Positions 1 through 22,068 of a stretch of 64,000 bases of DNA are shown piece after piece. The notes beneath the pieces were generated by a model. That model was not told where the DNA came from. It saw nothing but the letters and a program-made list of their open reading frames with translations, and did no database searches. The stretch lies in UHGV virus genome UHGV-0010228. The stretch is one strand, 5' to 3'. Source of the stretch: a virus. Numbering within the stretch: position 1 is the first letter of the stretch; every line of letters starts with the position of its first letter. A program made the position numbers and the translations under genes.

Positions 1-430
1 AGCTAAAAATGGAACTGAAGATGGAAATAATGATATTTCATCATCAATGATAAAGAATCTTTTCAGCATTGGTAAAGGTGGAATGATTGATGCTTTAGGT
101 GGTTATGAAGAAATATCTGGTGCTAGTGATGCTGGCATTCATAGCGAAATTTATGATGATGATAAAATTCATGACAAATATTTTAGTTCTGACGAGGAAG
201 AATCTGAGGGTGATTTATATTTAAAATATGAAAATATGAACATTGAATTGATCATGCTTATAGATGAGGATGATAATATATTAAATATTATCGCTGAAGA
301 TGATGATGGAAATGTGATACCTGATTATCCTGTACCTGAAATTAATGATGGGATGGGGTGCACATTCAATAAAACAGTTATGACTGCAGAAGATGGTTAT
401 CATCGAAAATATAAATTACGGATTGTATAA
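1..430 (+). CDS. hypothetical acidic protein (5' end probably outside window)
   Basis: ORF frame open back to window edge (codons from pos 2); internal ATG at 47; D/E-rich product; followed by hairpin terminator. Confidence 0.45.
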   Translation, partial: AKNGTEDGNNDISSSMIKNLFSIGKGGMIDALGGYEEISGASDAGIHSEIYDDDKIHDKYFSSDEEESEGDLYLKYENMNIELIMLIDEDDNILNIIAEDDDGNVIPDYPVPEINDGMGCTFNKTVMTAEDGYHRKYKLRIV

Positions 431-440
431 AAAAAAAATA

Positions 441-470
441 AAAGGGGATTCGTTTGAATCCCCTTTTTAA
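441..470. terminator. bidirectional hairpin terminator
   Basis: aaaggggattc-gttt-gaatccccttt stem-loop flanked by A-run and T-run, between convergent genes. Confidence 0.7.
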
Positions 471-489
471 CTGTGTATACGAGCTGCAT

Positions 490-1119
490 CTATATAGTTG
501 CAGCTTTTTTCTGAGTCTTATTATTGACCCCTTCTTTTATGGAGTCAATAACAGATCTCTCAGCGTTCTTGTTCTTATGAACACTCTTTGCGGCCTTCTT
601 CATAGCCGCATTATATGCCGCGGCATTTCTAGCCGTAGCCTTAGATACGGCTTTGCGACCGTACTTTTCAGCAGCGCTGAGATATTTCATCTCAGCGTCA
701 CATTTATCGGCTTTATCGCCATAATCTGACGACTCGACAGTATTTGTATTAACAACAAATCTGTCGTATGAATCCTCCCAAAGAGGATTCTCCATTATGC
801 TCATATTGAGCATATGAATCAGCGAAAGCAACTGCTTTCTCTGAAATATATTATTCAGAGAAAGCAGTTGCTTGCCTATGACAATGCCATAGTCCCCGAT
901 CATAAGATCGAGATTGTTAATTTCAAATATTCCGATTGGAATATCGATCGGAATATTTGAATTCTTTTCCTTCTTAGAGTTAAACGATGTTAACTCTAAG
1001 ATTTTATCCTCTGTAGTAAACAGAGGATAAAATCTTTTGCCATCAGCAACATATCCTTTTATTGACACAGGCTTAAGCTTGCCTGTGTTTTCTTTTTTAA
1101 AATTAAAAATCTTTAACAT
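490..1119 (-). CDS. hypothetical protein
   Basis: 209-aa ORF, RBS GGAGGT upstream of ATG at 1119; contains internal peptide repeat KQLLSL encoded by a 44-bp palindrome. Confidence 0.6.
   Translation of the reverse strand: MLKIFNFKKENTGKLKPVSIKGYVADGKRFYPLFTTEDKILELTSFNSKKEKNSNIPIDIPIGIFEINNLDLMIGDYGIVIGKQLLSLNNIFQRKQLLSLIHMLNMSIMENPLWEDSYDRFVVNTNTVESSDYGDKADKCDAEMKYLSAAEKYGRKAVSKATARNAAAYNAAMKKAAKSVHKNKNAERSVIDSIKEGVNNKTQKKAATI
828..871. repeat. 44-bp palindrome (18-bp perfect arms) inside CDS with ATATATTATT core at centre
   Basis: gcaactgctttctctgaa-atatatta-ttcagagaaagcagttgc read directly. Confidence 0.8.
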
Positions 1120-1140
1120 ATATTTACCTCCATGTTAAAT

Positions 1141-1170
1141 AATACTAGAAGCATTATTGCTTCTAGTATT
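1141..1170. terminator. hairpin (13-bp arms) between genes
   Basis: aatactagaagca-ttat-tgcttctagtatt. Confidence 0.6.
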
Positions 1171-1192
1171 TTCTAATTATATTTTATTCACT

Positions 1193-1205
1193 TAAATAAT
1201 ATATT
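1193..1205 (-). promoter_or_regulatory. conserved promoter-like motif ATATATTATTTAA
   Basis: exact 13-mer on minus strand, 74 nt upstream of ATG 1119. Confidence 0.6.
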
Positions 1206-1207
1206 GG

Positions 1208-1516
1208 TTAAAAATCATACAATCTCGATAAATTATCAGTACTACGATATTCCATTCCAGTAATGCAATTCTTATAATATGTAAGAATATCATCAGCATT
1301 ATATCTACGTATTGTGTGCGATACTATCTTATCATTATCGCGTTTAATGCATAGTATTGGTCTATTCTGATCATCATATTCTCTTTCATATGCAATACCT
1401 GTAGAATTCCAATAGAATATTTCATTACCATTATCATCATATCGATATGATTCTGAAAATCCCTTACCATTTTCAAATTCAAGTATTCTTCCATGTTCAT
1501 CATATATTTTACCCAT
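1208..1516 (-). CDS. YD/RHS-repeat protein (short)
   Basis: repeats YDEHGRIL, YRYDDNGNEI, YEREYDDQNRPIL match YD-repeat consensus YDxxGR(L/I); RBS AGGAGG. Confidence 0.6.
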   Translation of the reverse strand: MGKIYDEHGRILEFENGKGFSESYRYDDNGNEIFYWNSTGIAYEREYDDQNRPILCIKRDNDKIVSHTIRRYNADDILTYYKNCITGMEYRSTDNLSRLYDF

Positions 1517-1543
1517 TTTTTTTTAACCTCCTACATAAAAAAT

Positions 1544-1574
1544 AAGTCTATACATTATAGAAATGTATAGACTT
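1544..1574. terminator. hairpin terminator (13-bp perfect arms)
   Basis: aagtctatacatt-ataga-aatgtatagactt downstream of 469-aa gene. Confidence 0.7.
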
Positions 1575-1595
1575 ATTTAATTTATTAAGACTTAT

Positions 1596-3005
1596 TTACT
1601 TAAAGAATAATTCTGAGAGTGAATCAGCTATATCATCCTGTAATGATCCTGTTGTAACATTATTCTTTAAAGCTGTACATATATTTTCAGCCGCTTTAAG
1701 AATATTATCATCTACTGTAACTGGACGAGCTGGACGCTTAGAGAATATTTCAACTCTACGTTCATTACCAATTGGTGGATACGTCTTGCGGATAGAGCTA
1801 TAATCACCAAAGTGATTAGTATTCGTTCTAACACCCGTAATATCACTTATTTCTTCACAATAAGATGTTGGCTTAAGATACTGCTTAATAGCATTCATAT
1901 CAACATCTTCTGATATAATTTCATCATAATGAGATATATCAATAATACCCTCATAGAACATATTAATCTTATTAGGAATCAATTCGTATTCCTCCTGATC
2001 AAATATTTCTTCAAGATATGCTTCAATTGACTCATCTGATATATTGCATGATAAATGAATTGTGAGATAATCAATCGTCATCTCTTTCTCAAATTTAATG
2101 AGCTTACCATTTCTGGTAGTATGCCAGATATAACCTCCATTATAATCTCTTCTACGAGTAATTATATTATCATCATCAGTAGTATCTGCCATATAAATGA
2201 GACTATGATTCTCGTCGTAAGCATTAATAAGGCATCTATGTGAATTAAATATGCCGTCGCTAGATACATTGCCATGATAAATATGCTCTAATTCATAGTC
2301 ATCTTTATCATAGAGATATTCATGAGTGTTAACAACTTTGCCATTTACGTAATATGTAATATTATACTTCTTGGCACCGTCATTAAGATATGATATTTCT
2401 TCTTCCTTTATGATATTATTATACTGCAGATATGCAGTATATATCAGACGATCATTATCGTCATATTTATATATTTCACTAGCACCTTTATTATTTTTAG
2501 TCATCAATAATCGATGCTTATTGTCATAATGATTTTCGATCAGTCTTACACTCGGAAAATCACCATCCTCTATACCATCATGGCAATCACTCCAATATCT
2601 TTCAATAATAGTTTCTTTAGTACCATTATGATTGATATATGTGTCACGCTGAAAAGTACTTTCATCAATAGCTGCATTATTCTCATCATTAGTTACTGAA
2701 ATCTTTCTATAGAATGAAGTACCGTAGTTATACGAGATAGTCTTCTCGTATGATTTTTCATTTTCTGAGTTAGTCTTATATGACTCAAATGAAAGATCGC
2801 CCTTCTCATTATAATTTCTTTTAAGGACTGATAATCCATCCGCATCATTTATAGTCCTAGAGAATAAACGAGGATTCATCTGATCTGGGTCAGATGCATC
2901 TTCAATATTAATGATCGTTTCTGTAATAGCATCATCCCCAGTAATTCTCATCAATTTCTCAACTGACTTTGCTTCTTCCATAAACTTTTCAAAATTAAAA
3001 CCCAT
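1596..3005 (-). CDS. YD/RHS-repeat protein
   Basis: multiple YD repeats (NYNEKGDL, HYDNKHRLL, YKYDDNDRLIY, YLYDKDDYELE, AYDENHSLIY, RDYNGGYIWH); RBS AAGGAGG. Confidence 0.65.
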   Translation of the reverse strand: MGFNFEKFMEEAKSVEKLMRITGDDAITETIINIEDASDPDQMNPRLFSRTINDADGLSVLKRNYNEKGDLSFESYKTNSENEKSYEKTISYNYGTSFYRKISVTNDENNAAIDESTFQRDTYINHNGTKETIIERYWSDCHDGIEDGDFPSVRLIENHYDNKHRLLMTKNNKGASEIYKYDDNDRLIYTAYLQYNNIIKEEEISYLNDGAKKYNITYYVNGKVVNTHEYLYDKDDYELEHIYHGNVSSDGIFNSHRCLINAYDENHSLIYMADTTDDDNIITRRRDYNGGYIWHTTRNGKLIKFEKEMTIDYLTIHLSCNISDESIEAYLEEIFDQEEYELIPNKINMFYEGIIDISHYDEIISEDVDMNAIKQYLKPTSYCEEISDITGVRTNTNHFGDYSSIRKTYPPIGNERRVEIFSKRPARPVTVDDNILKAAENICTALKNNVTTGSLQDDIADSLSELFFK

Positions 3006-3049
3006 AGTAAAATGTCCTCCTTTTAAATAGGTGAGCTATAAATTATCAT

Positions 3050-3062
3050 ATAAATAATATAT
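3050..3062 (-). promoter_or_regulatory. promoter-like motif ATATATTATTTAT
   Basis: 44 nt upstream of ATG 3005. Confidence 0.6.
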
Positions 3063-3077
3063 AGCTCTAAATAAAAC

Positions 3078-5735
3078 TTAATATAACCGATATATCGTTT
3101 GATTAGAATTCTTATCAATAACTTCTTCTGTTGTCATAATTATATTTACTGGATTTCCATCAAATGAATTATGATTATGAGTTATTAAGAATACTTGCTT
3201 AGCCTTAATATCATGTAATTGCTTATATAAAATATCAATAAAATGATCTTTATCTTTCTTATATAATGGACCATCCATTTCATCTAATAGCATTATATTA
3301 TAAGGTATTTCAACTTTCTGATTTAATTGGAATTGCCTTATCAATGCAAATGATAATGCGATACTAATAATAGCTTTTTGTCCCTGTGATGCAGATTCTA
3401 TATCATCTACTACTATATCATTAGATGCAAATGGAATCTTAAACTCATTTTCTGTGATTACAAAATCTAAAATTTCTAATCCATCATTAAATACATCAGA
3501 TATTAATTCATTAACAATTTCTCTGCAATTATCAAGAAATAATTTGATTAATACTAACGGAATTCCATCTTTAGCGGATGATGCTGCTAATATATCACGT
3601 AATAATTCTCGTTCTTCTAATGCTTCATCATACTCGTGTTGAGTATAATCAATATCCATTAAAAGATGAACTAACGATCTATGACGTTGCTCCTTTATAT
3701 CATATTCTAATTTAATATTATTAACTTCACGATATAAATCATTTACTTGGATAATATTATTCTTTGCAATTTCTAAATTTTTAGAAAGATTAACGATATT
3801 ATCAGATAATGTTTTATGCTGAACATCATATTCACGAATATCATTCTTAATAGAATCAATATTTAATGAGATCGTATATAATTCACTGGAACTTTCATAT
3901 TTTTTATTAATTTCAGTTCGTTCAGAATCTTTGACCTCTAACTGAGATATTAATGATCTATGTAAAGATTCACAATTTAAAATTTTCTCATCTATATTAC
4001 CTGAAGATTCCAATTGGCTCATTTCATATTTGATAGACTTTAATCTCTCAGAGAGATCATATAATGATTCTCTCATTTGACATAGCTCTAAAATATTGAT
4101 TAATTTAGAATGATCATACCAATTATAATTTGATCTATCAATAAGAATCATTTTTAGATTTTCTTGATTTAAAACTCCAAGGTCTTTTAGTGGAGTTTTA
4201 ATTGATTTCCACATTTCTTTTAATCCAATAATTCTCTTATATAAATATGGAAGATCTTGATATTTTGATATTTCAATATCAATAGAATCTATCTCATTTA
4301 AAATGCTATGTAATTCAGTATCATTCCTATTATTTTTATTTATATTAATTGGATGAGATATATAATATGGGCATGATTTAGTTGGACACAATGGTGCTCT
4401 ATACATTGGAATTGTGGGTGAATAAGTTTCTGAAAATTTTATATTATTTATTTGCTTCTGAAGATTTACCTTTCTACCAGTGAGCATAGATACTTTCTTA
4501 GATGCTACTGTAGATATTGTTGCATCTGAATTATATGCTGCAATTATCGATTCCTTAGAATACGACGTTATCTCATTAATTGAAGTTTTTATAATTTCAA
4601 GATCATCTATAAATTTAGCTAAATTTATATAACTATATGAGCATTTGAATCCTTTTAACTTGCGACTGTATTCATTATATTTAGTCTCAATATCTAAATA
4701 TTGTTGTTTTAATAAAGCTAAATGTGACTCTGATCCTGATATCTTTTTCATATCACGATATTTATTTAAATCAGCTTTATTATTCTTTATAGATTCTTCT
4801 AAATTCATTATTTCTTCATCAAGAGATTTTTTTCTATATAATAATACAGATATTTCATTACCTAGCTTTGTGCTATCTACACCATCGTATGCTTCTACTT
4901 TAGATCGGAGATTATCAATCTCTTTATTTAAATCTGATATCTGACCATTTAATATGCTCAATTGATCTTCAGTTTCTTCTATACTATGATTATTCAATAA
5001 GATATTATTAGCAGTTGATAGTTCTACGATCTTAGACTTAAGTGTAGAACTATCTTTCTCTAATTCAGATAATCGAGTTCCCAATTCATCTCGTTCCTGT
5101 ATCATTTCATCATATTTATCAGCAGATAATGACATAAGTTTATTTGTAAGCATTGTCATCTTAGCATTCATAGCTCTCATATCATCTGATACTTTCTTAT
5201 ATATATCAAGATATATATCTGCCTCCGGTAATTGCGCTGCTATATATGATTTCCTATCTGTAGATTTCATATTAATAAGATTTGTAACATTAGGTCCTAA
5301 TCTTAATAATCTTAAGAAATTTTGCTCTATACCCATCTCATCCTTTACGATCTCTTTAAAGGCTCCAGTATTACCATTAGGATTTAACTCAACACCATTT
5401 AATTTAATATATGATTTGGTATTATGAGTTTGACCATTTTTATTCCATGTATACTTATGCTGTATCGAATATACATCTTCGCCTCGGATGATATCAATCT
5501 CTTTAAGTCCATCCTTTTCTGGTAATATTTGCTTATCTTGATTTCTAGAATCCAATGAACCATACGTTGAGAATGGCTGTAAGTGTCCTAATATAGCCGT
5601 CTTACCAGATCCCATCTTTCCTATAAATATATTTATAGGATTATCATTATCAAAAATGATTTCTATCTCATTTTTATTCATTCCTGAATATATATGAGCA
5701 AAGTTCTTTAAATAAAGTCTATGTATTTTCCACAT
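3078..5735 (-). CDS. sbcC: SbcC/Rad50-like recombination ATPase
   Basis: N-terminal Walker A GKMGSGKT, long coiled-coil middle, C-terminal Walker B/D-loop LLDEMDG...ITHN; RBS AAGGAG. Confidence 0.85.
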   Translation of the reverse strand: MWKIHRLYLKNFAHIYSGMNKNEIEIIFDNDNPINIFIGKMGSGKTAILGHLQPFSTYGSLDSRNQDKQILPEKDGLKEIDIIRGEDVYSIQHKYTWNKNGQTHNTKSYIKLNGVELNPNGNTGAFKEIVKDEMGIEQNFLRLLRLGPNVTNLINMKSTDRKSYIAAQLPEADIYLDIYKKVSDDMRAMNAKMTMLTNKLMSLSADKYDEMIQERDELGTRLSELEKDSSTLKSKIVELSTANNILLNNHSIEETEDQLSILNGQISDLNKEIDNLRSKVEAYDGVDSTKLGNEISVLLYRKKSLDEEIMNLEESIKNNKADLNKYRDMKKISGSESHLALLKQQYLDIETKYNEYSRKLKGFKCSYSYINLAKFIDDLEIIKTSINEITSYSKESIIAAYNSDATISTVASKKVSMLTGRKVNLQKQINNIKFSETYSPTIPMYRAPLCPTKSCPYYISHPININKNNRNDTELHSILNEIDSIDIEISKYQDLPYLYKRIIGLKEMWKSIKTPLKDLGVLNQENLKMILIDRSNYNWYDHSKLINILELCQMRESLYDLSERLKSIKYEMSQLESSGNIDEKILNCESLHRSLISQLEVKDSERTEINKKYESSSELYTISLNIDSIKNDIREYDVQHKTLSDNIVNLSKNLEIAKNNIIQVNDLYREVNNIKLEYDIKEQRHRSLVHLLMDIDYTQHEYDEALEERELLRDILAASSAKDGIPLVLIKLFLDNCREIVNELISDVFNDGLEILDFVITENEFKIPFASNDIVVDDIESASQGQKAIISIALSFALIRQFQLNQKVEIPYNIMLLDEMDGPLYKKDKDHFIDILYKQLHDIKAKQVFLITHNHNSFDGNPVNIIMTTEEVIDKNSNQTIYRLY

Positions 5736-5755
5736 TATTCTTTTCTCCTTTTCAA

Positions 5756-5768
5756 AAGAATAATATAT
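5756..5768 (-). promoter_or_regulatory. promoter-like motif ATATATTATTC
   Basis: variant of conserved motif 24 nt upstream of sbcC ATG. Confidence 0.5.
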
Positions 5769-5788
5769 AGTTTGATAAAAAATAAAGA

Positions 5789-5820
5789 AAAAAGAGAAGG
5801 TTAATAACCTTCTCTTTTTA
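5789..5820. terminator. bidirectional hairpin terminator
   Basis: aaaagagaaggtt-aata-accttctcttttt. Confidence 0.7.
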
Positions 5821-5834
5821 TTGATTTTATCTTT

Positions 5835-6275
5835 CTATTTATCTTTCTCTTTATCTGGATCGACAAAGTATTTTTTGGTAAGCTTTTCAATGAGCTTAGC
5901 CTGAATATCATTGCCAATATCACATAAAGCATCACTTGGTGGCACTGATGATGAGCATGATATTAATAATATTGGATTGTTATCATTTGGTTTTACTAGA
6001 GAGATATATACTTCACCAACTACAGCTTTTATACAATGCTCCTGAAATGAATATTTCAGATTATATTTCGCATCAATGATATATTTAATATCATCTATAT
6101 TAAAGCTTGTAGTTGTCCTTGATGGGAAATATATATCTGAATTAAACTTCCCAGTAGTATGCTTACTAATATTATCAGTAAGCATACGCTGCATTACAAT
6201 ATTAACCTCAGATGCAATCTTAATTATTTCTGAAGCATACAATATTATACCATTTTTTGCAATTTCTTTAGACAT
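5835..6275 (-). CDS. hypothetical protein
   Basis: 146-aa ORF, RBS AAGGAG, promoter motif upstream. Confidence 0.55.
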   Translation of the reverse strand: MSKEIAKNGIILYASEIIKIASEVNIVMQRMLTDNISKHTTGKFNSDIYFPSRTTTSFNIDDIKYIIDAKYNLKYSFQEHCIKAVVGEVYISLVKPNDNNPILLISCSSSVPPSDALCDIGNDIQAKLIEKLTKKYFVDPDKEKDK

Positions 6276-6317
6276 AGTTATTCTCCTTTATATCCTATGT
6301 AACTATAATTTATTCGT

Positions 6318-6330
6318 TTAAATAATATAT
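6318..6330 (-). promoter_or_regulatory. promoter-like motif ATATATTATTTAA
   Basis: 48 nt upstream of ATG 6275. Confidence 0.6.
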
Positions 6331-6413
6331 CTATATAAATTATTTTTTATATCTCGGTATAAACATAAAAGTAAAGGTGATTGATTACTAACCTTTTTGT
6401 CAAAATTCATTTT

Positions 6414-6437
6414 ATGTATGTTATTTTAATAATAACA
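6414..6437. repeat. hairpin 10-bp arms in intergenic region
   Basis: gtatgttatt-ttaa-taataacatac. Confidence 0.5.
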
Positions 6438-6485
6438 TACACCTCCAATTAAATAAGGCTGAAAAATATTGTGATTAACGGCAAT

Positions 6486-6514
6486 AAAAGAGAGTGCATT
6501 TGCACTCTCTTTTA
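6486..6514. terminator. bidirectional hairpin terminator
   Basis: aaaagagagtgca-tt-tgcactctctttt. Confidence 0.7.
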
Positions 6515-6516
6515 TT

Positions 6517-6531
6517 GTATATATATATATA
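6517..6531. repeat. (TA)7 dinucleotide repeat
   Basis: tatatatatatatat. Confidence 0.8.
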
Positions 6532-6533
6532 TT

Positions 6534-6574
6534 AATTAATGCTATATATCCATTATGGATATATAGCATTAATT
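6534..6574. repeat. 41-bp perfect palindrome (20-bp arms)
   Basis: aattaatgctatatatccat-t-atggatatatagcattaatt. Confidence 0.85.
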
Positions 6575-6647
6575 GCAGGAATAGGCAATTCATTGAGTAA
6601 AACCATTAGCACATGATTTTACACTTATGTTTATTAGATATAAAAAA

Positions 6648-7388
6648 TTACCAATAATATATTGCATCAGTATCAAGATTATACCCTTCGTTATCCCAAG
6701 TTTCAAGAAGCTGCTTCTTTTCATCGTGAGCATTTTGCCATTCATCAATCTTTAATGATATTGTACCAACACCTACTTCTAACTGATCTTTTCTCTTTAA
6801 TTGATTATAAAGAAATTCTTCTAAGTCTAATACGGTCAATTGCCTTAAGTGAGTCATAGCTCTAGGTGGTATTGTTGATAATGATAAATCATGAGTTAAT
6901 GCTATTTCACATCTATAAATACCACCATTCCATCCATTAAATATTGCTAATTTATTAGGTGGAATAAATCTAAATGTTGGTGATTTCTGCATATTTCTAG
7001 ATAATGCTGATGCCATCTGAATATCCGCAACTGTTTCCATTATTACATCAGCACCACCTAATGCTAATGAAGGGAAGTATAAATCATCAGTTCCTCCGCC
7101 ATATGATCCAGCTTCAATATTAAGAACTCCTAATATTGTAGAATCTTGATATTCCTTATATGGAATTTCATAAGTAACTGATCTATCAAAATATCTCATA
7201 GAATCATCTACTATCATATTTGGAGTAATCTGTATCATCTTTATATATGGTGAACGTTGTGAAAATTCTTTTAATGCAGATTGCTGAAATCTCTGTATTA
7301 ATCTAGTATCATCTACCGGTAATGGGATATCTTTTATTCCCATGTCTTCCTTGCATAATGTTAAAAATTCCGAAAGGTTATAAAACAT
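6648..7388 (-). CDS. hypothetical protein
   Basis: 246-aa ORF with RBS GAAAGGAG. Confidence 0.55.
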   Translation of the reverse strand: MFYNLSEFLTLCKEDMGIKDIPLPVDDTRLIQRFQQSALKEFSQRSPYIKMIQITPNMIVDDSMRYFDRSVTYEIPYKEYQDSTILGVLNIEAGSYGGGTDDLYFPSLALGGADVIMETVADIQMASALSRNMQKSPTFRFIPPNKLAIFNGWNGGIYRCEIALTHDLSLSTIPPRAMTHLRQLTVLDLEEFLYNQLKRKDQLEVGVGTISLKIDEWQNAHDEKKQLLETWDNEGYNLDTDAIYYW

Positions 7389-7437
7389 ATATATCCATCT
7401 CCTTTCACAAGATTAACGAGTTGTTAAAAAAATAAAT

Positions 7438-7464
7438 AACCCATATGATATAATCATATGGGTT
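7438..7464. terminator. hairpin terminator (12-bp arms)
   Basis: aacccatatgat-ata-atcatatgggtt. Confidence 0.65.
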
Positions 7465-7477
7465 ATAGAAAAAGTGA

Positions 7478-8134
7478 TTATAAAGTATGCGTATCAGCTG
7501 ATGACGCAGTTATACCGGTTGTAAGGGGTAAACCAATAATGAGATTGTCGGGGTCGGCTTCCTCGACAATGATCGTGTACTTTAAATTAAATGCGTCCAT
7601 TCCACGATCAAATAATAACATTGATACTCTACCATCACCCTTAATCACTTGTTTAAAATTGAATAAAGCGTTCTTATCAACAAATCTAGATTTATATAAA
7701 TCTATATTTATCTGCTTCTGCTGCAATGCTTCTTTAATTAATCTCTTTAATATATCGTCATTATCTTTTATTTCTGGTATAGCCGATCCTTCTGTATCTG
7801 GGAAATTAACAATAACTACCTCTTTATTATTAATCATATTTACTATTTCATCAGGATTTAATGTGCCAACTTTATTTTCCCATTTATATTCATCATCATC
7901 AGGATCTGCTTCAACTAATATGTATTTCTCAATCCTAGTATCAAACCATATCCCTGGTTTTGTTGGATCAAGTGAAGTTTCGCCATTATATAGATAAAAC
8001 TGATCCCCTTTTAAATATGCAGTATCTTCACTAAAATATGTATCTTTATCATTATATAATTTAATAAAATATACACCCGTTTTAGTTACGATTCTAGACT
8101 CATTTGTGAAAACATTCTTTTCCATCTTTACCAT
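7478..8134 (-). CDS. hypothetical protein
   Basis: 218-aa ORF, overlaps upstream gene by 7 nt (coupled). Confidence 0.5.
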   Translation of the reverse strand: MVKMEKNVFTNESRIVTKTGVYFIKLYNDKDTYFSEDTAYLKGDQFYLYNGETSLDPTKPGIWFDTRIEKYILVEADPDDDEYKWENKVGTLNPDEIVNMINNKEVVIVNFPDTEGSAIPEIKDNDDILKRLIKEALQQKQINIDLYKSRFVDKNALFNFKQVIKGDGRVSMLLFDRGMDAFNLKYTIIVEEADPDNLIIGLPLTTGITASSADTHTL

Positions 8135-10260: not shown

Positions 10261-10290
10261 AATATTTATTTTCCTTTCATAATAATCCAT

Positions 10291-10303
10291 CTAAATAATA
10301 TAT
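10291..10303 (-). promoter_or_regulatory. promoter-like motif ATATATTATTTAG
   Basis: 31 nt upstream of helicase ATG 10260. Confidence 0.6.
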
Positions 10304-13111: not shown

Positions 13112-13654
13112 TTACATAATCCGCTTATATACAAAATTGTGATATAAGTGACCATTAGCATCAACTTTCTGAGGATCATCTGGATTTTCACACTCCCATC
13201 TTGGATCTTTATTAGTAATAAGATTCATAAATAGATTTACAAATGTATCACAAGCACCATTTACATTTGTAAATTTTGTTAAATAAACTTTTTCAGCATC
13301 ATTTGCGAATGCATCATATAATGTAGCCCCTCCAATAATCCAAACATCACCATATTCAAGATATGTGTCGATAAGATCTCTAAGAGCAGATTCATTGTTA
13401 ACAAATATTGACATAGTTTTCTCATCTTCAATTTGATTACAAGGCCTATATTTAGTAGATATAACAACATTCGTTCTATTCTTTAATGGTTTAGAACCTA
13501 TAGATTCCCAGGTTTTTCTACCCATAACTACTACTGATCCTGTAGTCATCATTTTAAAATATTTTAAATCTTCAGGTGATTTACAAAAGAGCTCACCTTT
13601 ATTACCAATACCGCCTATAACATTAGACGCTGCTATCATTTTAATTGTTCCCAT
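13112..13654 (-). CDS. folA: dihydrofolate reductase
   Basis: MIAASNVIGGIG...VVMGRKTWESIG...IIGGATLY signature of DHFR; RBS AAGGAG. Confidence 0.85.
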   Translation of the reverse strand: MGTIKMIAASNVIGGIGNKGELFCKSPEDLKYFKMMTTGSVVVMGRKTWESIGSKPLKNRTNVVISTKYRPCNQIEDEKTMSIFVNNESALRDLIDTYLEYGDVWIIGGATLYDAFANDAEKVYLTKFTNVNGACDTFVNLFMNLITNKDPRWECENPDDPQKVDANGHLYHNFVYKRIM

Positions 13655-13665
13655 TTTATTCTCCT

Positions 13666-14526
13666 TTATTCTGCCACTGGAATATTTTTTATCTGAGGGT
13701 TTGCCTCATAATTTGGAATATGAATATCATCTATAGTAAAATCATAAAAATCCTTTATATCAGGATTAATTAGTACTTGTGGCGCTGGATAAGTTTTTCT
13801 AGATATCATTTCTTTTACGATTGGTATGTGTCTATCATAAATATGTGCATCCGCAATACAATGAATTAGTGTACCAGCTTCATAACCAGTAACCTGTGCT
13901 AATAATTTTAATAATAACGAATACTGAAATACATTAAATGCATTTGCAACTAATACATCTTGTGATCTTTGATTTAATATAGCATTTAATTTATTTCCAG
14001 TAACATTAAATGTCATACTATAAGCGCATGGTGCTAAATTCATTTCATGTAGATCTTCAAAATTATATATATTAGTTATCATACGTCTACTCTGTGGAGT
14101 ATTCTTTAATTGCCATATGATATTATCAACCTGATCCATTTCTCCCTGTGGGAATAAATATTTCTTACCTAATTGATACCCATAGGCTTTACCTATAGTA
14201 CCATCTTCGCCTTCCCACTGATCCCATATATGATTTCCTAATTCCGAAACCTTATTGGATTTCTTCTGCCATATCCATAATAATTCTTGTGTTGCAGTTT
14301 TCCATGCGGTTGGTCTTAGTGTGCATAATGGCATTTCTTTACCAACATCATAGACATTTACTGCACCAAATATTTTTATAGTATGGGCTGGTGTTCCATC
14401 TTCCCATTTAGCTCTAACAACTGACCCTTCAGTTGAATATCCGTAATCAATAATATGATTACATAACGTAATTAAGCTATCATCATATTTACTCATTTTA
14501 TTAACCTCCTTAAAATAAGTATCCAT
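13666..14526 (-). CDS. thyA: thymidylate synthase (ThyA family)
   Basis: active-site LAPCA...NQRSQDVLVANAFNVFQYSLL matches TS motifs (catalytic Cys, substrate Asn retained); adjacent to DHFR as in T4 frd-td. Confidence 0.8.
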   Translation of the reverse strand: MDTYFKEVNKMSKYDDSLITLCNHIIDYGYSTEGSVVRAKWEDGTPAHTIKIFGAVNVYDVGKEMPLCTLRPTAWKTATQELLWIWQKKSNKVSELGNHIWDQWEGEDGTIGKAYGYQLGKKYLFPQGEMDQVDNIIWQLKNTPQSRRMITNIYNFEDLHEMNLAPCAYSMTFNVTGNKLNAILNQRSQDVLVANAFNVFQYSLLLKLLAQVTGYEAGTLIHCIADAHIYDRHIPIVKEMISRKTYPAPQVLINPDIKDFYDFTIDDIHIPNYEANPQIKNIPVAE

Positions 14527-14589: not shown

Positions 14590-15810
14590 GTGGGTAAAGA
14601 CATGGATACTATCCCTGAAAATTTAAAAAAAGAACTATTAGCACTAGATGCTAAAACTATAACAGTTTCTCAGATATCATCTTTATTTGGTTATACAATG
14701 GATAAAGAATCTGGAGATCCTTTTAAAGTTAAACCTCCGAAATTTGATACTACATGGAAAATGCATTTAAATGCCGGAGAATATATCAACAAAGAAGCTG
14801 TAGATACTCATGTTGGAATATTTTTATTTAATAAACTTCTTATTGAGGGAAATGTTGAAGATGCAATTCCAAATGGTTACTATAATGAAGTAATGACCGC
14901 AAAGAAAATGAAAAAGTTACTTTCAATGATTGCAAATGCCTTATTAAATAATATTGTAACAATAAAGCCTCAAGTATATCATTTTCTAAGAAATTATGAA
15001 TTTTGGTCTCTTAAATTAGTATCTATATTCTCTGCATCATATACGCCTAAGTTATTAGATATGAACACTAAAATTGAGGCTGAAAAGAAGAGAGTTCTGA
15101 ATGATCTCGATTCAATGACTATGGTTGATATGGTAAATGCTGAAGATAAGTTAGTTGATATGGCTAACCAGGTAGTTGGAAACGATCCAGGTAAGGCAAT
15201 ATTTAATTCTGGAGCAAGAGGTTCATTTGAAAACGACTATAAGAACATGATGTTATCTGTAGGACCTACAATGAATCCAACTACAGGGGAATACGATTTT
15301 ATCAAATCTTCTTATTTAGGTGGTATTAGCAAAGAGGATTTAGCTGCCGCAGGAAATATAATTATTAATGCAGAATATCCTAAAGCAATTGGTACTGCTA
15401 AAGGTGGATACTTGGTAAAGCAGTTCTATGCAGTATTTCAGAATGTAGTCTTCGGAGAACCAGGCTCTGATTGTAAAACTAAAGAAGGACTTATAGTAAA
15501 GATTGATAATGATAATGTAAATGAGTATATCGATCAATATGCATTTGGTAAAAGTGGGCCAGTTTTAATTACTGAAGAAAATGCAAAGAATTGGATTGGT
15601 AGAACTATAAAAATTAGATCACCGATGTTTTGTACTGCAGAGCATATTTGTAATAAGTGTGCTGGAGAGAGATTTTATAAATTAGGAATTAGAAATGCAG
15701 GATTAACTGCAATAAATATTGGTTCTAAAATCTTAAATGCCGGAATGAAAAACCGTCACTCTCTTAAAATTAAACTCGATACGGTTGATATTAATAAGGT
15801 GCTAAAATAG
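14590..15810 (+). CDS. multisubunit RNA polymerase beta-prime subunit, C-terminal half (copy A)
   Basis: SGARGS..., AIGTAKGGYLVKQFYAVFQNVV...DCKT (bridge helix region F) and CNKCAGERF...GLTAINIGSKI...RHS (trigger loop region G), compared with E. coli RpoC as recalled from memory. Confidence 0.75.
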   Translation: MGKDMDTIPENLKKELLALDAKTITVSQISSLFGYTMDKESGDPFKVKPPKFDTTWKMHLNAGEYINKEAVDTHVGIFLFNKLLIEGNVEDAIPNGYYNEVMTAKKMKKLLSMIANALLNNIVTIKPQVYHFLRNYEFWSLKLVSIFSASYTPKLLDMNTKIEAEKKRVLNDLDSMTMVDMVNAEDKLVDMANQVVGNDPGKAIFNSGARGSFENDYKNMMLSVGPTMNPTTGEYDFIKSSYLGGISKEDLAAAGNIIINAEYPKAIGTAKGGYLVKQFYAVFQNVVFGEPGSDCKTKEGLIVKIDNDNVNEYIDQYAFGKSGPVLITEENAKNWIGRTIKIRSPMFCTAEHICNKCAGERFYKLGIRNAGLTAINIGSKILNAGMKNRHSLKIKLDTVDINKVLK

Positions 15811-16049: not shown

Positions 16050-18065
16050 TTATACATATTTAGCTAATACAGGGGCATACATTGTATCGAGATGTGATGG
16101 GGCACTCTTCTTATATAATTCAGTAGATAAGATTTGTCTCTTTAAGAATCCGTATGGCATACTAACTAATGCACTTGGATGATACTGTAAAGCAGTATCA
16201 AGTCTTAATATTTGATAATCATTAGGATCTCCATTAGCACTAAAATCTGGAAATTCTAATATATTAGATTTCTTTCTTAAAAGTCCTCTAATGATTAATT
16301 CACCATGAACTAAATCATATTTCTGACCCATACTTATTAATGATTCTGCAAATTTCTGACACATCTCGCTAACAGTTCTTACTCCCATATGCTCGTTGGT
16401 ATTTAAGAGTTTCTTAAATATTTCAATAGGTTCTGTCAGCTCTTTATTCTTAACCTCAACTAAGAATAAAGACATTGTTTCATCAAAATTCTCTAATGAT
16501 ATAGGAGTAGATTTATCACGAAGCTTTTTATATTGATCAATAATCTGATCGTTGAGATATAACTTAGCTTCACTTTCTTCATATATATGATATATCTCAT
16601 TATTAGCTGCATCTTGTATTTTAAATCCATATGTATAATAGAAAATTTTATCGTCTAATTCTTCTTCTATTACATCATCTAATACAATATACAAATCAGC
16701 ATCAAGATCTGAATCTTCTTTAAGACTCATTTCAGATGATTCTAATTCAAATAATTCATCAAATCCTTTACTGAATTTAATCTGATTAGAATGTGTAGTC
16801 TGAGAATGCTTTGTTGATAATACACCTTGCTGTGCTGGCTCTGATTCTTTAAGTGCAGCAATTGCACCTACACTAAACAAACTTGAATTAATATCAAATA
16901 ATTTACCATAGCAGTATTTACAAATGCCATCTTTACCACAGCATGTTGCCGGTGATTTAAACCTAACAATCTTACCAATAAGATCTTTATCTTTCTTATA
17001 ATCAACGCATTTTAAATGACCATGACTATCATAATAGAATCGACCATTTAATAATGATAAGAAATTGTCATCTAATATATGATAATCAACCGTTGCAACA
17101 CTATTACACATCTCACCTGACTGTGATAATATACCTGATGAAGTTGAAACCTGACATAATTTCTTAGCGAATGCACCCGGAATTCCCATTCCCTGCTTAA
17201 CAGCAATTAATGCTTTTCTACCTGACAGTGCATTAATATAGAATAATGATGGCTTATATAATCCGTCTAATAAGAATGATCCATTTATCATTACCGGAAT
17301 TACGTTGCCTGATAAGTCAGCTTTAAGTCCTATCTTAATCATAAACTCTTTTAACTGTGCAGGTTTTATTCCAGCACCAGATGCGTATGAAGATCTAAAA
17401 TCATTATCTTTACCAGGTTCTGCAGGTAAATCATTCTTCATTATATCAATTAATCTTGAAGTACGTCTACTTAACTCATCTTCAATCTCATTAGGCTCAA
17501 GAGTTTCATCAACATCTTTATACATTATATCATGAACTTCAGGTATACGCTTTTCTAAATCATATATGTTATGAATTGACACACCGTTACCAATCAATAA
17601 ACAAAAAGCATGAGCTATAGCAATGATTGAATAATATATATCATCAATCATTGTATTCTTTGATGCAAAGTCATCATCATTTATTGGTAGTAACTTTTCA
17701 TTTATATATTCTAATAAAGTTATTGAACTGAATTTAGTAAAATCAAATATATATGATTCATCTAATAATTCTACTTTATCCATATATATAAATGGTTTCC
17801 ACAATATTAAGTTAGATAGTAAATGACGAAGTTCCATAGTTTTAAATTCTTTATCTTCAGAATGGAATTTATAATGAACTAATCTACTTCTAATTTCCTT
17901 GTACTCAAACCCATATTTGAGTATATCTAATAGATCCTGAAAGATTACATTGTAAGTTTTATTGGATTCCAATATTTCTTCAATAATCAGAAAATGCTCA
18001 TCGTTATAAATTGCATCTAATTCTTCTGGAGTTTTCTTTGGATGCCCATTAAAGTCAATTTTCAT
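16050..18065 (-). CDS. multisubunit RNA polymerase beta-prime subunit, C-terminal half (copy B, paralogue)
   Basis: SGAGIKPAQLKEF...GRKALIAVKQGMGIPGAFAKKL (bridge helix) and CKYCYGKLF...GAIAALKESEPAQQGVLSTKHS (trigger loop, cf E. coli CAHCYGRDLARG...GEPGTQLTMRTFH); start at ATG 18065 with RBS GGGAGG. Confidence 0.75.
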   Translation of the reverse strand: MKIDFNGHPKKTPEELDAIYNDEHFLIIEEILESNKTYNVIFQDLLDILKYGFEYKEIRSRLVHYKFHSEDKEFKTMELRHLLSNLILWKPFIYMDKVELLDESYIFDFTKFSSITLLEYINEKLLPINDDDFASKNTMIDDIYYSIIAIAHAFCLLIGNGVSIHNIYDLEKRIPEVHDIMYKDVDETLEPNEIEDELSRRTSRLIDIMKNDLPAEPGKDNDFRSSYASGAGIKPAQLKEFMIKIGLKADLSGNVIPVMINGSFLLDGLYKPSLFYINALSGRKALIAVKQGMGIPGAFAKKLCQVSTSSGILSQSGEMCNSVATVDYHILDDNFLSLLNGRFYYDSHGHLKCVDYKKDKDLIGKIVRFKSPATCCGKDGICKYCYGKLFDINSSLFSVGAIAALKESEPAQQGVLSTKHSQTTHSNQIKFSKGFDELFELESSEMSLKEDSDLDADLYIVLDDVIEEELDDKIFYYTYGFKIQDAANNEIYHIYEESEAKLYLNDQIIDQYKKLRDKSTPISLENFDETMSLFLVEVKNKELTEPIEIFKKLLNTNEHMGVRTVSEMCQKFAESLISMGQKYDLVHGELIIRGLLRKKSNILEFPDFSANGDPNDYQILRLDTALQYHPSALVSMPYGFLKRQILSTELYKKSAPSHLDTMYAPVLAKYV

Positions 18066-18316
18066 TTTTCTTTTTCCTCCCAGCAAATAATAACATCATC
18101 ACTTCTATCATCAGTATTATTAGTATACAATACAACATTATATTTACATTTATCTTTTAATGATAAATCCTCTATGGGATATACATTAACACAATCATAA
18201 AAAGCACCATTACCGGGAATATTTGGCTGATTATTATAATATTCCATTTCAACAGTATAAGTTAATTGTGAATACGATAAACTCGTAAACAGTGTAAATA
18301 ATAATAAAGTTTTCAT
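18062..18316 (-). CDS. small secreted protein (signal peptide)
   Basis: MKTLLLFTLFTSLSYSQ hydrophobic N-terminus; RBS GAGGA; stop overlaps RNAP gene ATG (ATGA). Confidence 0.45.
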   Translation of the reverse strand: MKTLLLFTLFTSLSYSQLTYTVEMEYYNNQPNIPGNGAFYDCVNVYPIEDLSLKDKCKYNVVLYTNNTDDRSDDVIICWEEKEK

Positions 18317-18341
18317 ATTATTGTCCTCAATTGTCATGATA

Positions 18342-18377
18342 AAAGCGATATACTATCAATTGATAGTATATCGCTTT
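18342..18377. terminator. 36-bp perfect palindrome terminator
   Basis: aaagcgatatactatcaa-ttgatagtatatcgcttt followed by T-rich tract. Confidence 0.7.
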
Positions 18378-18402
18378 GTTTTTGTTATTTTAAGATTCTA
18401 GG

Positions 18403-19302
18403 TTATTCAATTACAACTTTACCATCTTTCCAATCAACTTTCTTACCAAGAGCTTCGGCAATCTGTCTGATTGAGCAATAATTGGTACCATTTCCTTTGA
18501 AGCCTTTAATCTTCATATCTTTGCCATTAACACGAACATTAACTTCTCCGACATCGATAATCGGTGTACTGCCGGATGATGTGACACTTAAGCCAAGACC
18601 TTCACCGATTGGTCTGACCGCAAGATAGTTGGATCCCTCCTTCATAATACCCTTGACTGTAACTTCTTTACCAAGTAATATTATTTTACGATCTTCTACC
18701 ACTTCGTCATCCACCTCCTTTGTTGGTGTTGCTGATGTCTTTCCATTATATGCATCTGCAAGTTTCTTTTTGAACGCTTTCCAATTTGCTTCGCCTGCTG
18801 CAGTGTAGCACATTGGCTCCGGACATCTCTTTGCAGTTACATCATAATGTCTATAAACGTTTTCTAATGGAATATTATATTTTTTCATTAAATATACTCC
18901 CAACTCAATCGCATTTGCTTGAGTTTCTTCAGGAATATAATAATGCCCTTTACCTACGACTGGATTTGGAGTTGTTGATCTAGATACCATTTCAATAGAT
19001 ATTGAATTAGTATTGGTAATTTTACCTTTCATCTTACCGATACCCTTATCACCAACTGAATATCCAACATTCGTATCAGGTACACAATTGTATACAGTCT
19101 TACTATTATCAACACAGTAATGTGCAGAAGCTGCTCTAGGACTATTCTTAAAGTAATTTGCATTACCTTTAGCTGTTGCATTCTTTCCAGAAGCAGTGGT
19201 TCCATTAGCAGTATAATGATAAATCAGATACTTTGGCGTTCCTCTTTGTCCGCCATAATATTTAGCTCTTATTGAGGAGTCTATCTTTAGTGTGAGTGCC
19301 AT
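18403..19302 (-). CDS. endolysin: N-acetylmuramoyl-L-alanine amidase (Amidase_2/PGRP) with Cu_amine_oxidN1-type cell-wall-binding repeats
   Basis: YHYTA..HYCVD amidase_2 motifs; two C-terminal repeats ending KVDWKDGKVVIE typical of Cu_amine_oxidN1 domains of Clostridia/Bacilli; RBS AGGAGG. Confidence 0.8.
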   Translation of the reverse strand: MALTLKIDSSIRAKYYGGQRGTPKYLIYHYTANGTTASGKNATAKGNANYFKNSPRAASAHYCVDNSKTVYNCVPDTNVGYSVGDKGIGKMKGKITNTNSISIEMVSRSTTPNPVVGKGHYYIPEETQANAIELGVYLMKKYNIPLENVYRHYDVTAKRCPEPMCYTAAGEANWKAFKKKLADAYNGKTSATPTKEVDDEVVEDRKIILLGKEVTVKGIMKEGSNYLAVRPIGEGLGLSVTSSGSTPIIDVGEVNVRVNGKDMKIKGFKGNGTNYCSIRQIAEALGKKVDWKDGKVVIE

Positions 19303-19326
19303 GTCAATCCTCCTTTCATAAAATAT

Positions 19327-19356
19327 AGGTTAATGTAGTATATACTACATTAACCT
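19327..19356. terminator. hairpin terminator
   Basis: aggttaatgtagta-tat-actacattaacct. Confidence 0.65.
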
Positions 19357-19368
19357 AATTGTTAGTTA

Positions 19369-20274: not shown

Positions 20275-20279
20275 ATCAT

Positions 20280-21986: not shown

Positions 21987-22024
21987 TTTTGTGTGTACCT
22001 CCTTAAAATAATTATATAATTTTT

Positions 22025-22059: not shown

Positions 22060-22068
22060 TTAATATAA

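Follow-up and report, generated by a model that had tools for sequence, protein, structure and literature searches.

Two adjacent genes of an uncultured human-gut jumbo phage encode a small protein that is, by its repeat profiles and predicted fold, a genuine YD-repeat protein cut down to four units, and a larger orphan protein in which YD-like sequence is only faintly recognizable. Neither of them is able to close into a toxin shell. The two are best explained as a pair of soluble, cytoplasmic β-hairpin-repeat proteins that act as non-enzymatic binding proteins in the early programme of the phage, a reading of the whole that we hold with middling confidence. The window analysed here is a stretch of 64,000 nucleotides of the virus genome UHGV-0010228, and four of its genes, running from SbcC to the gene that follows the pair, are discussed below:

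3078–5735, minus strand: SbcC/Rad50-like ATPase, 885 aa (AAA_23 at 32.6 bits, cut-off 27; phrog_77 at E = 2.6e-46)
1596–3005, minus strand: 469-aa orphan protein (open reading frame; no Pfam match)
1208–1516, minus strand: 102-aa stand-alone YD-repeat protein (RHS_repeat and TIGR01643 matches, structure model)
490–1119: 209-aa gene, next after the 102-aa gene

Genomic setting

The source phage is of the AR9/PBS1/Staphylococcus S6–MarsHill kind. Its RNA polymerase is encoded by split multisubunit β/β′ genes related to those of AR9, PBS1, S6 and MarsHill, and a tubulin gene lies just beyond the window edge. Megablast of window positions 1–8000 against 50,697 phage records gave no cultured-phage match, and the phage has no close cultured relative. 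The module around both genes is devoted to replication and nucleotide metabolism, with helicases, DnaB, ligase, RNase H, NrdD/NrdG, ThyA, DHFR, dUTPase and DNA polymerase. Both open reading frames, of 469 and 102 codons, exist as the initial annotation had described them, and the setting that it had proposed, a replication module downstream of sbcC, is borne out by the neighbouring gene content and by the AAA_23 and phrog_77 matches. The two genes lie directly downstream of the SbcC-like gene, and the order sbcC, large protein, small protein was constant in all nine loci examined (9/9). Tyr, Asp and Asn are abundant in the proteome (median for Tyr, 6.2%), so bare YD dipeptides carry little weight.

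Repeats and predicted fold of the 102-aa protein

The 102-aa protein consists of four units, the first three of which begin at residues 5, 26 and 47, a spacing of 21, and the last of which, at residue 72, is degenerate; only two units are canonical. The YD motifs that had been read in it go beyond chance. RHS_repeat (PF05593) scored 22.0 bits, exactly at its cut-off of 22.0, TIGR01643 scored 18.1 bits (cut-off 15.8), and an independent repeat profile gave 27.0 bits, where the highest of 500 shuffles reached 7.1.

Structure prediction agrees with a fold of YD/RHS type. The AlphaFold model (pLDDT 89) shows nine antiparallel strands in an open sheet, and its best PDB matches are strips from the shell walls of Rhs, TcB/TcC and teneurin proteins, on which it superposes over 84–90 residues with TM 0.64–0.71 and rmsd 2.2–2.9 Å (for 7q97_A, TM 0.69 and rmsd 2.2 Å over 87 columns; for 8qjd, 8qja and teneurin-2/3, TM 0.60–0.71). 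The best viral structural match, in BFVD, is a 152-aa phage protein (TM 0.77).

A family of stand-alone mini-YD proteins

Sequence similarity further places the 102-aa protein, as a divergent member, in a large family of small YD-repeat proteins that has not been curated and is here called mini-YD. The family comprises at least 1,328 clusters, has a strict 21-residue period and a median protein length of 131 aa; the best 120 matches are all 109–251 aa long, and 233 of about 260 unit-to-unit intervals measure 21 residues. Its members lie on phage-like contigs, often as tandem arrays of paralogues. The unit profile was built from 406 units, taken from metagenomic mini-YD members only. In the reverse direction, an HMM made solely from the 102-aa family matched 16 mini-YD open reading frames at 27–62 bits, with two further, weaker matches. 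A cultured example is gp42 of Verrucomicrobia phage P8625 (AKA60293.1), which lies within a replication module among RecT-family, helicase and primase genes.

Some mini-YD proteins carry an FxFPxEI-type N-terminal leader (48/118 members) or the C-terminal motifs GKVIEVDG (49/118) and IIDxRP (17/118); not being universal, these motifs do not strictly define the family. All of them are absent from the 102-aa protein, which begins directly with a YD unit, so that its membership is by repeat similarity only. The supposed rarity of YD-repeat proteins in phages holds for cultured phages, with weak matches in 7 of 50,697 records, but not for metagenomic phage-like contigs.

The 469-aa protein is an orphan with a faint YD signal

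The 469-aa protein is predicted to begin with a helix, followed by a long β-hairpin region (residues ~46–336), a conserved C-terminal α/β region (~346–424) and a variable helical tail, whose length beyond residue ~430 is not constant and which is cut short in one lineage. No hydrophobic or membrane segment was found in it. The protein is acidic, with a net charge of −36 (−7.7 per 100 aa); a role as a DNA mimic was considered and rejected, as several other window proteins match this charge density. Among 1.84 billion (1.84e9) representatives its relatives amount to one other 50%-identity cluster, with no bacterial homologue. Neither tblastn against cultured phages nor a pattern scan of IMG/VR found relatives, and a PDB sequence search returned noise only.

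YD-like units can be recognized near residues 160, 181 and 263, yet the YD motifs that had been ascribed to this protein proved marginal: one conserved site gives a signal, and it falls below all curated cut-offs. PF05593 and TIGR01643, which score at or above their cut-offs in the 102-aa protein, do not do so here. TIGR01643 scored 12.1 bits (cut-off 15.8), with the sub-threshold signal at residues 160–188, and PF05593 gave no match. A weak signal recurs at the same site in two orthologues, and in a 445-aa orthologue PF05593 scored 12.6 bits, below the cut-off of 22. The independent mini-YD unit profile gave 3.8 bits on the 469-aa protein, inside the shuffle range.

The structure model, built from three sequences, is poor (pLDDT 52) and consists mostly of β-hairpins; in Foldseek searches with this low-confidence model, Rhs-type similarity was local only (TM 0.1–0.2), with no global shell match. 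Only residues 158–236 resemble the 102-aa neighbour, with a domain score of 14.7 bits, a full-sequence score of 8.3 against a shuffle maximum of 6.8, and an hhalign E of 3.6e-7. The protein also contains an internal repeat, and the two proteins are each other's best non-self match within the window. These comparisons weakly support the view that this lineage-restricted orphan retains, in its central part, a small number of YD-like units akin to those of the 102-aa protein.

Expression signals around the two genes

The signals read from the window around these genes are as follows:

5753–5768: early promoter motif of sbcC itself
3047–3062, minus strand: copy of the AR9-type early promoter motif (ATATATTAT-N6-G), lying 42 nt ahead of the start codon of the 469-aa gene
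3033–3067, unstranded: inverted repeat GAGCTATA...TATAGCTC in the sbcC–469-aa intergenic region, enclosing the early promoter motif
3015–3020, minus strand: GGAGGA ribosome-binding site of the 469-aa gene, read from the sequence and conserved
1540–1578, minus strand: hairpin between the genes, a 17-bp stem followed by a U-run (terminator-like scan)
1527–1531, minus strand: GGAGG ribosome-binding site of the 102-aa gene, read from the sequence and conserved
1189–1204, minus strand: early promoter motif past the 102-aa stop codon, serving the 209-aa gene
1141–1170: hairpin following the 1189–1204 motif

The window contains 15 copies of the motif ATATATTAT-N6-G where 2.6 would be expected, and nearly all of them are intergenic and in sense orientation. 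The AR9 virion RNA polymerase recognizes promoters with the consensus AAATATATATTAT-(6N)-G+1 (PMC5312081), and the copy at 3047–3062 matches this early consensus and is invariant across lineages. By analogy with AR9, the 469-aa gene, with an early promoter motif of its own, is probably transcribed early by the virion RNA polymerase. The enclosing inverted repeat (−15.9 kcal/mol, z = −4.0) has arms that are invariant in five sequences from three lineages.

The initial annotation had assigned a shared promoter motif to both genes. It is present before the 469-aa gene and before sbcC but not before the 102-aa gene, where positions 1517–1595 contain neither an early nor a late promoter motif. A second candidate motif upstream of the 102-aa gene, ATAAATTAAATA, was rejected with 9 matches in the window against 10.1 expected. 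That the two are separate genes, each with its own ribosome-binding site and with a hairpin between them, was confirmed: a GGAGG lies about 9–11 nt before the ATG of both, and the stem-loop at 1540–1578 has a folding energy of −23.3 kcal/mol (z = −6.2). Its stem is invariant in three lineages although identity in the 469-aa gene next to it has fallen to 49%, and the hairpin has the look of an intrinsic terminator or of an element that stabilizes RNA. The 102-aa gene, with no promoter motif and behind this hairpin, is probably expressed by read-through, and the motif at 1189–1204 marks the end of the 469/102 unit.

Variation and selection

Comparison of the lineages marks out the 469-aa gene as a variable cassette with sharp boundaries. 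Its three alleles encode 469, 492 and 445 aa. Its product shares 49% amino-acid identity with the positional orthologue (about 60% at the nucleotide level), whereas the sequence either side of the gene is about 90% identical between the same phage lineages and SbcC is 93% identical. The 102-aa protein is 79–90% identical between lineages. Values of dN/dS were 0.17–0.28 for the 469-aa gene and 0.12–0.19 for the 102-aa gene. In the 469-aa gene dS reached 1.5, compared with about 0.5 in the flanks; allele exchange by recombination fits this high value as well as an arms race does. Both open reading frames were intact in all nine loci, which represent three lineages.

Proposed role and alternative explanations

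From the type of fold, the class of promoter and the evolutionary pattern, we infer that a binding role in the early programme is most likely. Both proteins would bind their partners non-enzymatically, through exposed faces or edges of an open β-sheet. Because its gene is replaced or diversified and yet remains under purifying selection, the 469-aa protein would be the specificity-bearing partner, directed against a variable target; a host factor with a part in takeover or counter-defence is the likeliest. As the conserved backbone member, the 102-aa protein would bind a conserved partner. Among the roles first put forward for the pair, that of an anti-host factor is the remaining option and is compatible with the data. 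A further reading, which we consider unlikely, would make the mini-YD proteins a large unrecognized class of early proteins that use the RHS-wall sheet as a scaffold for binding host factors. The pair would then be a two-part swappable inhibitor, with a conserved 102-aa module and a rapidly exchanged 469-aa specificity module in a cassette adjoining sbcC.

The pair could instead be accessories of SbcC, acting as adaptors or regulators of DNA-end processing that replace or recruit a missing SbcD/Mre11. We judge this quite unlikely, although several observations are in its favour: the gene order is fixed in 9/9 loci, neither an SbcD-like gene nor the GNH[DE] phosphoesterase motif is present beside sbcC or elsewhere in the window, the cultured mini-YD gene also stands among recombination and replication genes, and the 469-aa protein is acidic. 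However, the same SbcC-like gene occurs in AR9 and MarsHill without a YD protein, so the partnership is not conserved in the wider phage group, and identities of 93% for SbcC and 49% for the 469-aa protein would be unusual for tight partners. In addition, no nuclease or DNA-binding domain was detected in either protein, several window proteins are equally acidic, and a separate promoter or hairpin goes with each gene. The narrower proposal that one of the two proteins replaces SbcD was rejected, since neither contains a phosphoesterase motif or domain.

A place in the virion, as structural or cell-wall-binding components (YD repeats being said to bind carbohydrate), is very unlikely for proteins whose genes lie in a replication module far from recognizable tail genes. 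The 469-aa gene carries the early motif and not the AR9 late motif AACA-N6-T[A/G], and PHROG structural families match neither protein. Consistent with such a place are the YD-repeat proteins found in tail modules of B. cereus-group siphophages, where they have been proposed as adsorption aids (PMC9128512), a nearby DUF7484 protein that matches a 'virion structural protein' PHROG, the annotation of the MarsHill SbcC-like protein as virion associated, and the fast divergence typical of receptor-binding proteins. A Klebsiella phage tail fibre also came up in tblastn, but this weak match had an E of 0.6.

It is highly improbable that both open reading frames are pieces, no longer functional, of an rhs or wapA gene captured from bacteria, the decayed RHS element of the initial annotation. 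In favour of this, functional Rhs proteins are all much longer than these two, the repeats of the 469-aa protein are degenerate, and weak similarity between adjacent open reading frames is what fragments of a single gene would show. Yet both frames are intact in nine loci of three lineages with dN/dS of 0.12–0.28, and ribosome-binding sites and flanking signals are conserved for each gene. The 102-aa protein is much closer to mini-YD proteins (27–62 bits) than to solved Rhs proteins (≤18.7 bits), and the 469-aa protein has no bacterial homologue among the 1.84e9 representatives. Under purifying selection, the two genes are not decayed remnants.

The searches for the remaining parts of an RHS toxin system were negative throughout. 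No RHS-associated core repeat domain (TIGR03696-type) was found in NCBIfam at E ≤ 10, and the whole-protein RHS_core model NF041261 reached 12 bits where its cut-off is 2,000, with a match that covers the YD repeats. The regular expressions DPxG[LWIVM] and PxxxxDPxG were absent from all 11 family members. The C-terminal 171 residues of the 469-aa protein gave no Pfam or PDB sequence match, and in Pfam neither protein has a recognizable toxin domain or a PAAR, VgrG-binding or LXG domain. An export signal was likewise absent, with no hydrophobic segment and a maximum Kyte–Doolittle 19-residue mean of 0.65, and PADLOC defence models matched neither protein. That a YD shell here delivers a C-terminal toxin, with the small open reading frame as accessory or immunity gene, is thus scarcely credible for two cytoplasmic early-region proteins of a lytic phage that show no sign of export and measure 469 and 102 residues against 660 to >2,000 for the solved YD shells in the structural match lists, even though the repeat type and local fold of the 102-aa protein match the Rhs shell wall, a true phage YD-repeat toxin is known in APSE3 and the 469-aa protein has a conserved C-terminal region with no assigned function. 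Since both proteins are too small and incomplete for an RHS shell, what we see is an unusual use of a known repeat and not the toxin-encapsulating delivery cassette that had been suggested.

Comparison with known systems

A YD motif in a phage does not in itself denote an RHS toxin cassette, and an automatic label such as 'Rhs family protein' would be wrong here. The YD unit, otherwise found in very large secreted shells, also exists as a stand-alone module of ~100–250 aa in many uncultured phages, in the mini-YD family, for which Pfam, PHROGs and NCBIfam have no entry. Studies of host interaction or counter-defence could reasonably take up the 469-aa gene as a candidate. None of this overturns current understanding, and the proposed mechanism is one that we infer.

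With the Rhs, TcB–TcC and teneurin proteins (7q97 RhsA, 8qjd, 6fb3) the pair shares the YDxxGR/N repeat with its period of about 21 residues, marginally so in the 469-aa protein, and, in the 102-aa protein, the local antiparallel β-hairpin architecture. Rhs-type shells are built from dozens of units, whereas here there are four, or a few degenerate ones, which makes a closed shell impossible. Unlike Rhs-type proteins, the pair has no RHS core/aspartyl autoprotease motif, N-terminal plug, C-terminal toxin, secretion signal or adaptor, and it is apparently cytoplasmic, phage-encoded and located in an early/replication module.

The YD-repeat toxin of APSE3, whose gene spans 17,764–22,185 and encodes about 1,470 aa (PMC8579659), and the tail YD proteins of B. 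cereus-group phages are, like the pair, phage-encoded proteins with YD repeats. They are large, however, and serve as lysogenic-conversion toxins or belong to tail modules, whereas the pair is small, lies in an early module and has no such context. MORN/YwqK-like proteins likewise form single-layer sheets of β-hairpin repeats that act as binding or dimerization modules, and are weaker structural neighbours: the MORN profile matched neither protein at E ≤ 10, MORN proteins in BFVD reached TM 0.28–0.42 against 0.70–0.77 for phage YD proteins, and the repeat consensus differs.

With the early genes of AR9/PBS1-like phages, which the virion RNA polymerase transcribes, the 469-aa gene shares its promoter motif, ATATATTAT-N6-G. 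The slot after sbcC is occupied in AR9 and MarsHill by unrelated small genes and holds no YD protein. The 102-aa gene is single-copy, in contrast to the tandem arrays of mini-YD genes, and its product has a large orphan relative as its partner, whereas in the few mini-YD loci listed the gene calls alone show no comparable neighbour. Like the 102-aa protein, the mini-YD proteins are nonetheless small and stand-alone, consist almost only of 21-residue YD units and are encoded, as these genes are, among early or replication-type phage genes.

Organization of the gene pair

Two adjacent open reading frames, encoding proteins of 469 and 102 aa, lie downstream of an SbcC/Rad50-like gene (sbcC). The gene structure proposed in the initial annotation stood: each frame has a GGAGG 9–11 nt 5' of its ATG, and a hairpin separates the two.

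Features of the locus
1208–1516, minus strand: 102-aa ORF (ORF call)
1540–1578: 17-bp hairpin with U-run between the two ORFs (−23.3 kcal/mol, z = −6.2 against shuffles)
1596–3005, minus strand: 469-aa ORF (ORF call)
3033–3067: conserved inverted repeat enclosing the promoter motif of the 469-aa gene
3078–5735: SbcC/Rad50-like ATPase, 885 aa, upstream of the pair (AAA_23, 32.6 bits, cut-off 27; phrog_77 'SbcC-like', E = 2.6e-46)

Nearly all intergenic gaps of the region are filled by strong hairpins (1141–1170, 1540–1578, 3033–3067 and 5789–5819), and window positions 1–6500 hold 13 terminator-like sites where 1.1 were expected. Hairpins fall before, around or after the promoter motif depending on the gap, and not all of them may be simple terminators. 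Downstream of the pair, a gene at 490–1119 (minus strand) encodes a basic 209-aa protein (pI 9.5) of moderate divergence (66–81% identity between lineages), which matched the PADLOC candidate-defence model PDC-S31 weakly (E = 0.004, 14.5 bits) and no other family.

The 102-aa protein belongs to an uncurated family of small YD-repeat proteins

Both products had been described as YD/RHS-repeat proteins, which was borne out for the 102-aa protein. It is recognised at threshold by PF05593 (22.0 bits, cut-off 22) and TIGR01643 (18.1 bits, cut-off 15.8), with YD units beginning at residues 5, 26 and 47 (period 21 residues). Its AlphaFold2 model (pLDDT 89) predicts nine antiparallel strands arranged as a ladder, and the top Foldseek matches in the PDB are strips of shell wall from Rhs effectors (7q97, 8qjd, 8qja and 8h8a), TcB/TcC and teneurins, with close superpositions on Rhs effectors and teneurins (query TM 0.60–0.71, rmsd 2.0–3.5 Å, 81–93 columns). 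The BFVD search was led by two uncharacterised 152-aa phage proteins (TM 0.77 and 0.70), with MORN-repeat proteins matching far more weakly. The sole good cultured-phage match by tblastn was gp42 of Verrucomicrobia phage P8625, a protein with five perfect YD units of 21 residues, encoded between helicase and primase genes.

Searching with a profile that combined the 102-aa family and P8625 gp42 brought up 1,328 clusters (E ≤ 1e-3), and the 120 best-scoring ones are all small (109 to 251 aa). Members of this group of stand-alone phage proteins, here named the mini-YD family, have a median length of 131 aa and 3–5 units at strict 21-residue spacing (unit consensus YYENSDGYWEKREYDSNGNET). Because gp42 formed part of the search profile, the link to the 102-aa protein was checked in two independent ways: an HMM from the 102-aa family only matched mini-YD proteins at 27–62 bits, and a unit HMM from metagenomic proteins only gave the 102-aa protein 27.0 bits, where 500 shuffles peaked at 7.1. 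No solved Rhs protein, in comparison, exceeded 18.7 bits with the profile of the 102-aa family. These profile comparisons link the 102-aa protein to the family; since it lacks the N-terminal leader and C-terminal motifs found in many members, it is placed there as a divergent one.

The mini-YD loci examined lie on long phage-like contigs with numerous small genes in one direction, near genes for DUF932, HNH homing endonucleases, T4 gp13-like proteins and a family B DNA polymerase. Paralogues often stand in tandem, and two metagenomic loci each contain at least seven copies:

L012, 1145–10111: mini-YD tandem array, genes of ~122–194 aa
L015, 2166–9074: mini-YD tandem array, genes of ~122–194 aa

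Typical members gave only sub-threshold matches in Pfam, PHROGs and NCBIfam, and no curated family covers the arrays.

The 469-aa gene is an orphan and a bounded variable cassette

The 469-aa protein had no Pfam or PHROG family match, and exhaustive phmmer against 1.84 billion representatives returned one other cluster, at 49% identity; by sequence comparison it is a lineage-restricted orphan. Its YD content survived as a weak signal. TIGR01643 scored 12.1 bits at residues 160–188, and PF05593 scored 12.6 bits at the same site in a 445-aa orthologue; three motifs are conserved (YDNKHRLL, YDDNDRLIY and YDENHSLIY). Similarity to its neighbour was seen with hhalign, which aligned residues 159–189 with residues 4–34 of the 102-aa protein (E = 3.6e-7; probability 93% for the segment, 54% for the whole profile), and with the 102-aa-family HMM (8.3 bits; shuffles reached 6.8 at most), whose matched domain has the same location in all six orthologues. 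The two proteins are reciprocal best non-self matches within the window, and residues 141–167 resemble residues 244–270 (E = 1.6e-5). The TIGR01643 match is under cut-off, and the independent mini-YD unit profile gave a non-significant 3.8 bits.

The structural model of the 469-aa protein is poor (pLDDT 52, built from three sequences), with hairpins over residues ~46–336, then mixed alpha/beta structure (346–424) and after that a helical tail. Foldseek listed Rhs, Tc and teneurin proteins at the top, but at TM 0.1–0.2, a matter of local hairpin similarity only. The net charge is −36, and equally acidic proteins occur elsewhere in the window. In one lineage the large protein stops early, at 432 aa (locus L005, 5760–5910, compared with window 1596–1700), and leftover tail sequence is kept as non-coding DNA ahead of the hairpin; given this early stop, the C-terminal helical tail past about residue 430 seems dispensable.

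All nine retrieved loci contain both genes. Between the window and a second lineage (locus L003), protein identity is 92–99% for the flanking genes (dS ~0.45–0.6), 90% for the 102-aa protein (dN/dS 0.12) and 49% for the 469-aa protein (dN 0.43, dS 1.5, dN/dS 0.28). On these alignments both genes are under purifying selection. In a sliding comparison of the same loci, nucleotide identity was ~0.9 over the backbone of the compared stretch (helicase gene through 102-aa gene), dipped to ~0.6 exactly over the 469-aa gene and over a 146-aa gene beyond sbcC, and was back to 0.91 inside the 102-aa gene. Near-invariant intergenic signals flank the 469-aa gene on either side, and together with the sharp dip they mark it as a bounded variable cassette, probably exchanged via recombination at the conserved flanks. 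The 146-aa gene (5835–6275, minus strand), directly upstream of sbcC, forms another variable cassette with sharp boundaries and without a family match, its protein 53–55% and its nucleotides ~0.63–0.69 identical between lineages that are ~0.9 identical on either side.

Phage context and early promoters

The window, with a G+C content of 29.9%, lacks tRNA genes. Its replication and nucleotide-metabolism module includes SF2 and SF1 helicases, DnaB, NAD-dependent ligase, RNase H, RusA, NrdD, NrdG, ThyA, DHFR, dUTPase and a DNA polymerase. The window also carries two genes for a split multisubunit RNA polymerase, both beta/beta'-like (phrog_2962 and phrog_3015):

14602–15810, plus strand
16050–18065, minus strand

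The nearest cultured relatives of the RNA polymerase genes and SbcC by tblastn are in the Bacillus phages AR9/PBS1, the Staphylococcus jumbo phages S6/MarsHill, the Listeria jumbo phage LPJP1 and the Yersinia phage phiR1-37, at 27–37% identity. AR9, PBS1, S6 and phiR1-37 reportedly use uracil in their DNA; the ThyA, DHFR and dUTPase genes here (13112–14526 and 25964–26410) suggest a thymine-containing genome. The locus recurs, identical or near-identical, on 223–256 kb human-gut metagenome contigs, one from a Hadza sample, with a tubulin gene ~6 kb past the left end of the window. A giant ORF (47717–59461, minus strand; 3,914 aa) contains a C39-like or papain-like peptidase (~2868–2992), a glucosaminidase (3443–3564) and an M23 peptidase (3687–3785); its product is probably virion-associated, a cell-wall-degrading or tape-measure-type protein, and the domains suggest a Gram-positive host. 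No SbcD/Mre11 partner adjoins sbcC, and the GNH[DE] phosphoesterase motif is absent from all frames of the window. The AR9 and MarsHill SbcC homologues likewise have no adjoining SbcD/Mre11, and that of MarsHill has a virion-associated annotation.

The window contains 15 copies of the motif ATATATTAT-N6-G, where 2.6 would be expected; copies are intergenic, upstream of genes and in sense orientation in nearly all cases.

Copies of ATATATTAT-N6-G
1189–1204, 5' of the 209-aa gene
3047–3062, 5' of the 469-aa gene, within the inverted repeat 3033–3067
5753–5768, 5' of sbcC
6315–6330
10288–10303
23306–23321
25927–25942
26592–26607
32738–32753
32790–32805 (plus strand)
35444–35459
36053–36068
36892–36907
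40285–40300
62983–62998

It agrees with the early promoter that experiments defined in AR9, AAATATATATTAT-(6N)-G+1, used by the virion RNA polymerase (PMC5312081), the core of which is also reported for MarsHill (bioRxiv 10.1101/2020.12.14.422802). By analogy, these AR9-matching copies, nearly all upstream of genes, suggest an AR9-like transcription scheme in the gut phage. The promoter motif earlier ascribed to both genes of the pair is true of the large gene only, since a copy lies at 3047–3062 but none in 1517–1595, upstream of the 102-aa gene, which would be expressed via read-through of the 1540–1578 hairpin.

Proposed role and relation to known YD proteins

We propose that the 469-aa and 102-aa proteins would act as cytoplasmic, non-enzymatic binders of the early programme, the variable 469-aa protein carrying specificity toward a variable target, probably in the host, and the 102-aa protein forming part of the conserved backbone. 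The leading alternative has the pair working with SbcC, which the fixed gene order and the lack of a nearby SbcD gene favour, but the slot after sbcC in AR9 and MarsHill holds unrelated genes, and SbcC and the 469-aa protein evolve at sharply different rates. The RHS toxin shell of the initial annotation is rejected: except for the repeat and, in the small protein, the local fold, the pair has no defining feature of one, being too small for a closed shell (469 and 102 aa), with no RHS core match, DPxGL motif, toxin domain, or hydrophobic or secretion segment found in it. PADLOC models matched neither protein.

The locus is chiefly of value for drawing attention to an uncurated phage protein family and a variable early gene. 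The earlier observation is partly confirmed, and the pair stands as a fresh variant of the known YD repeat class. It differs in kind from the phage-encoded YD-repeat toxin of APSE3, of ~1,470 aa (PMC8579659), and from the YD proteins in the tail module of B. cereus-group siphophages (PMC9128512).
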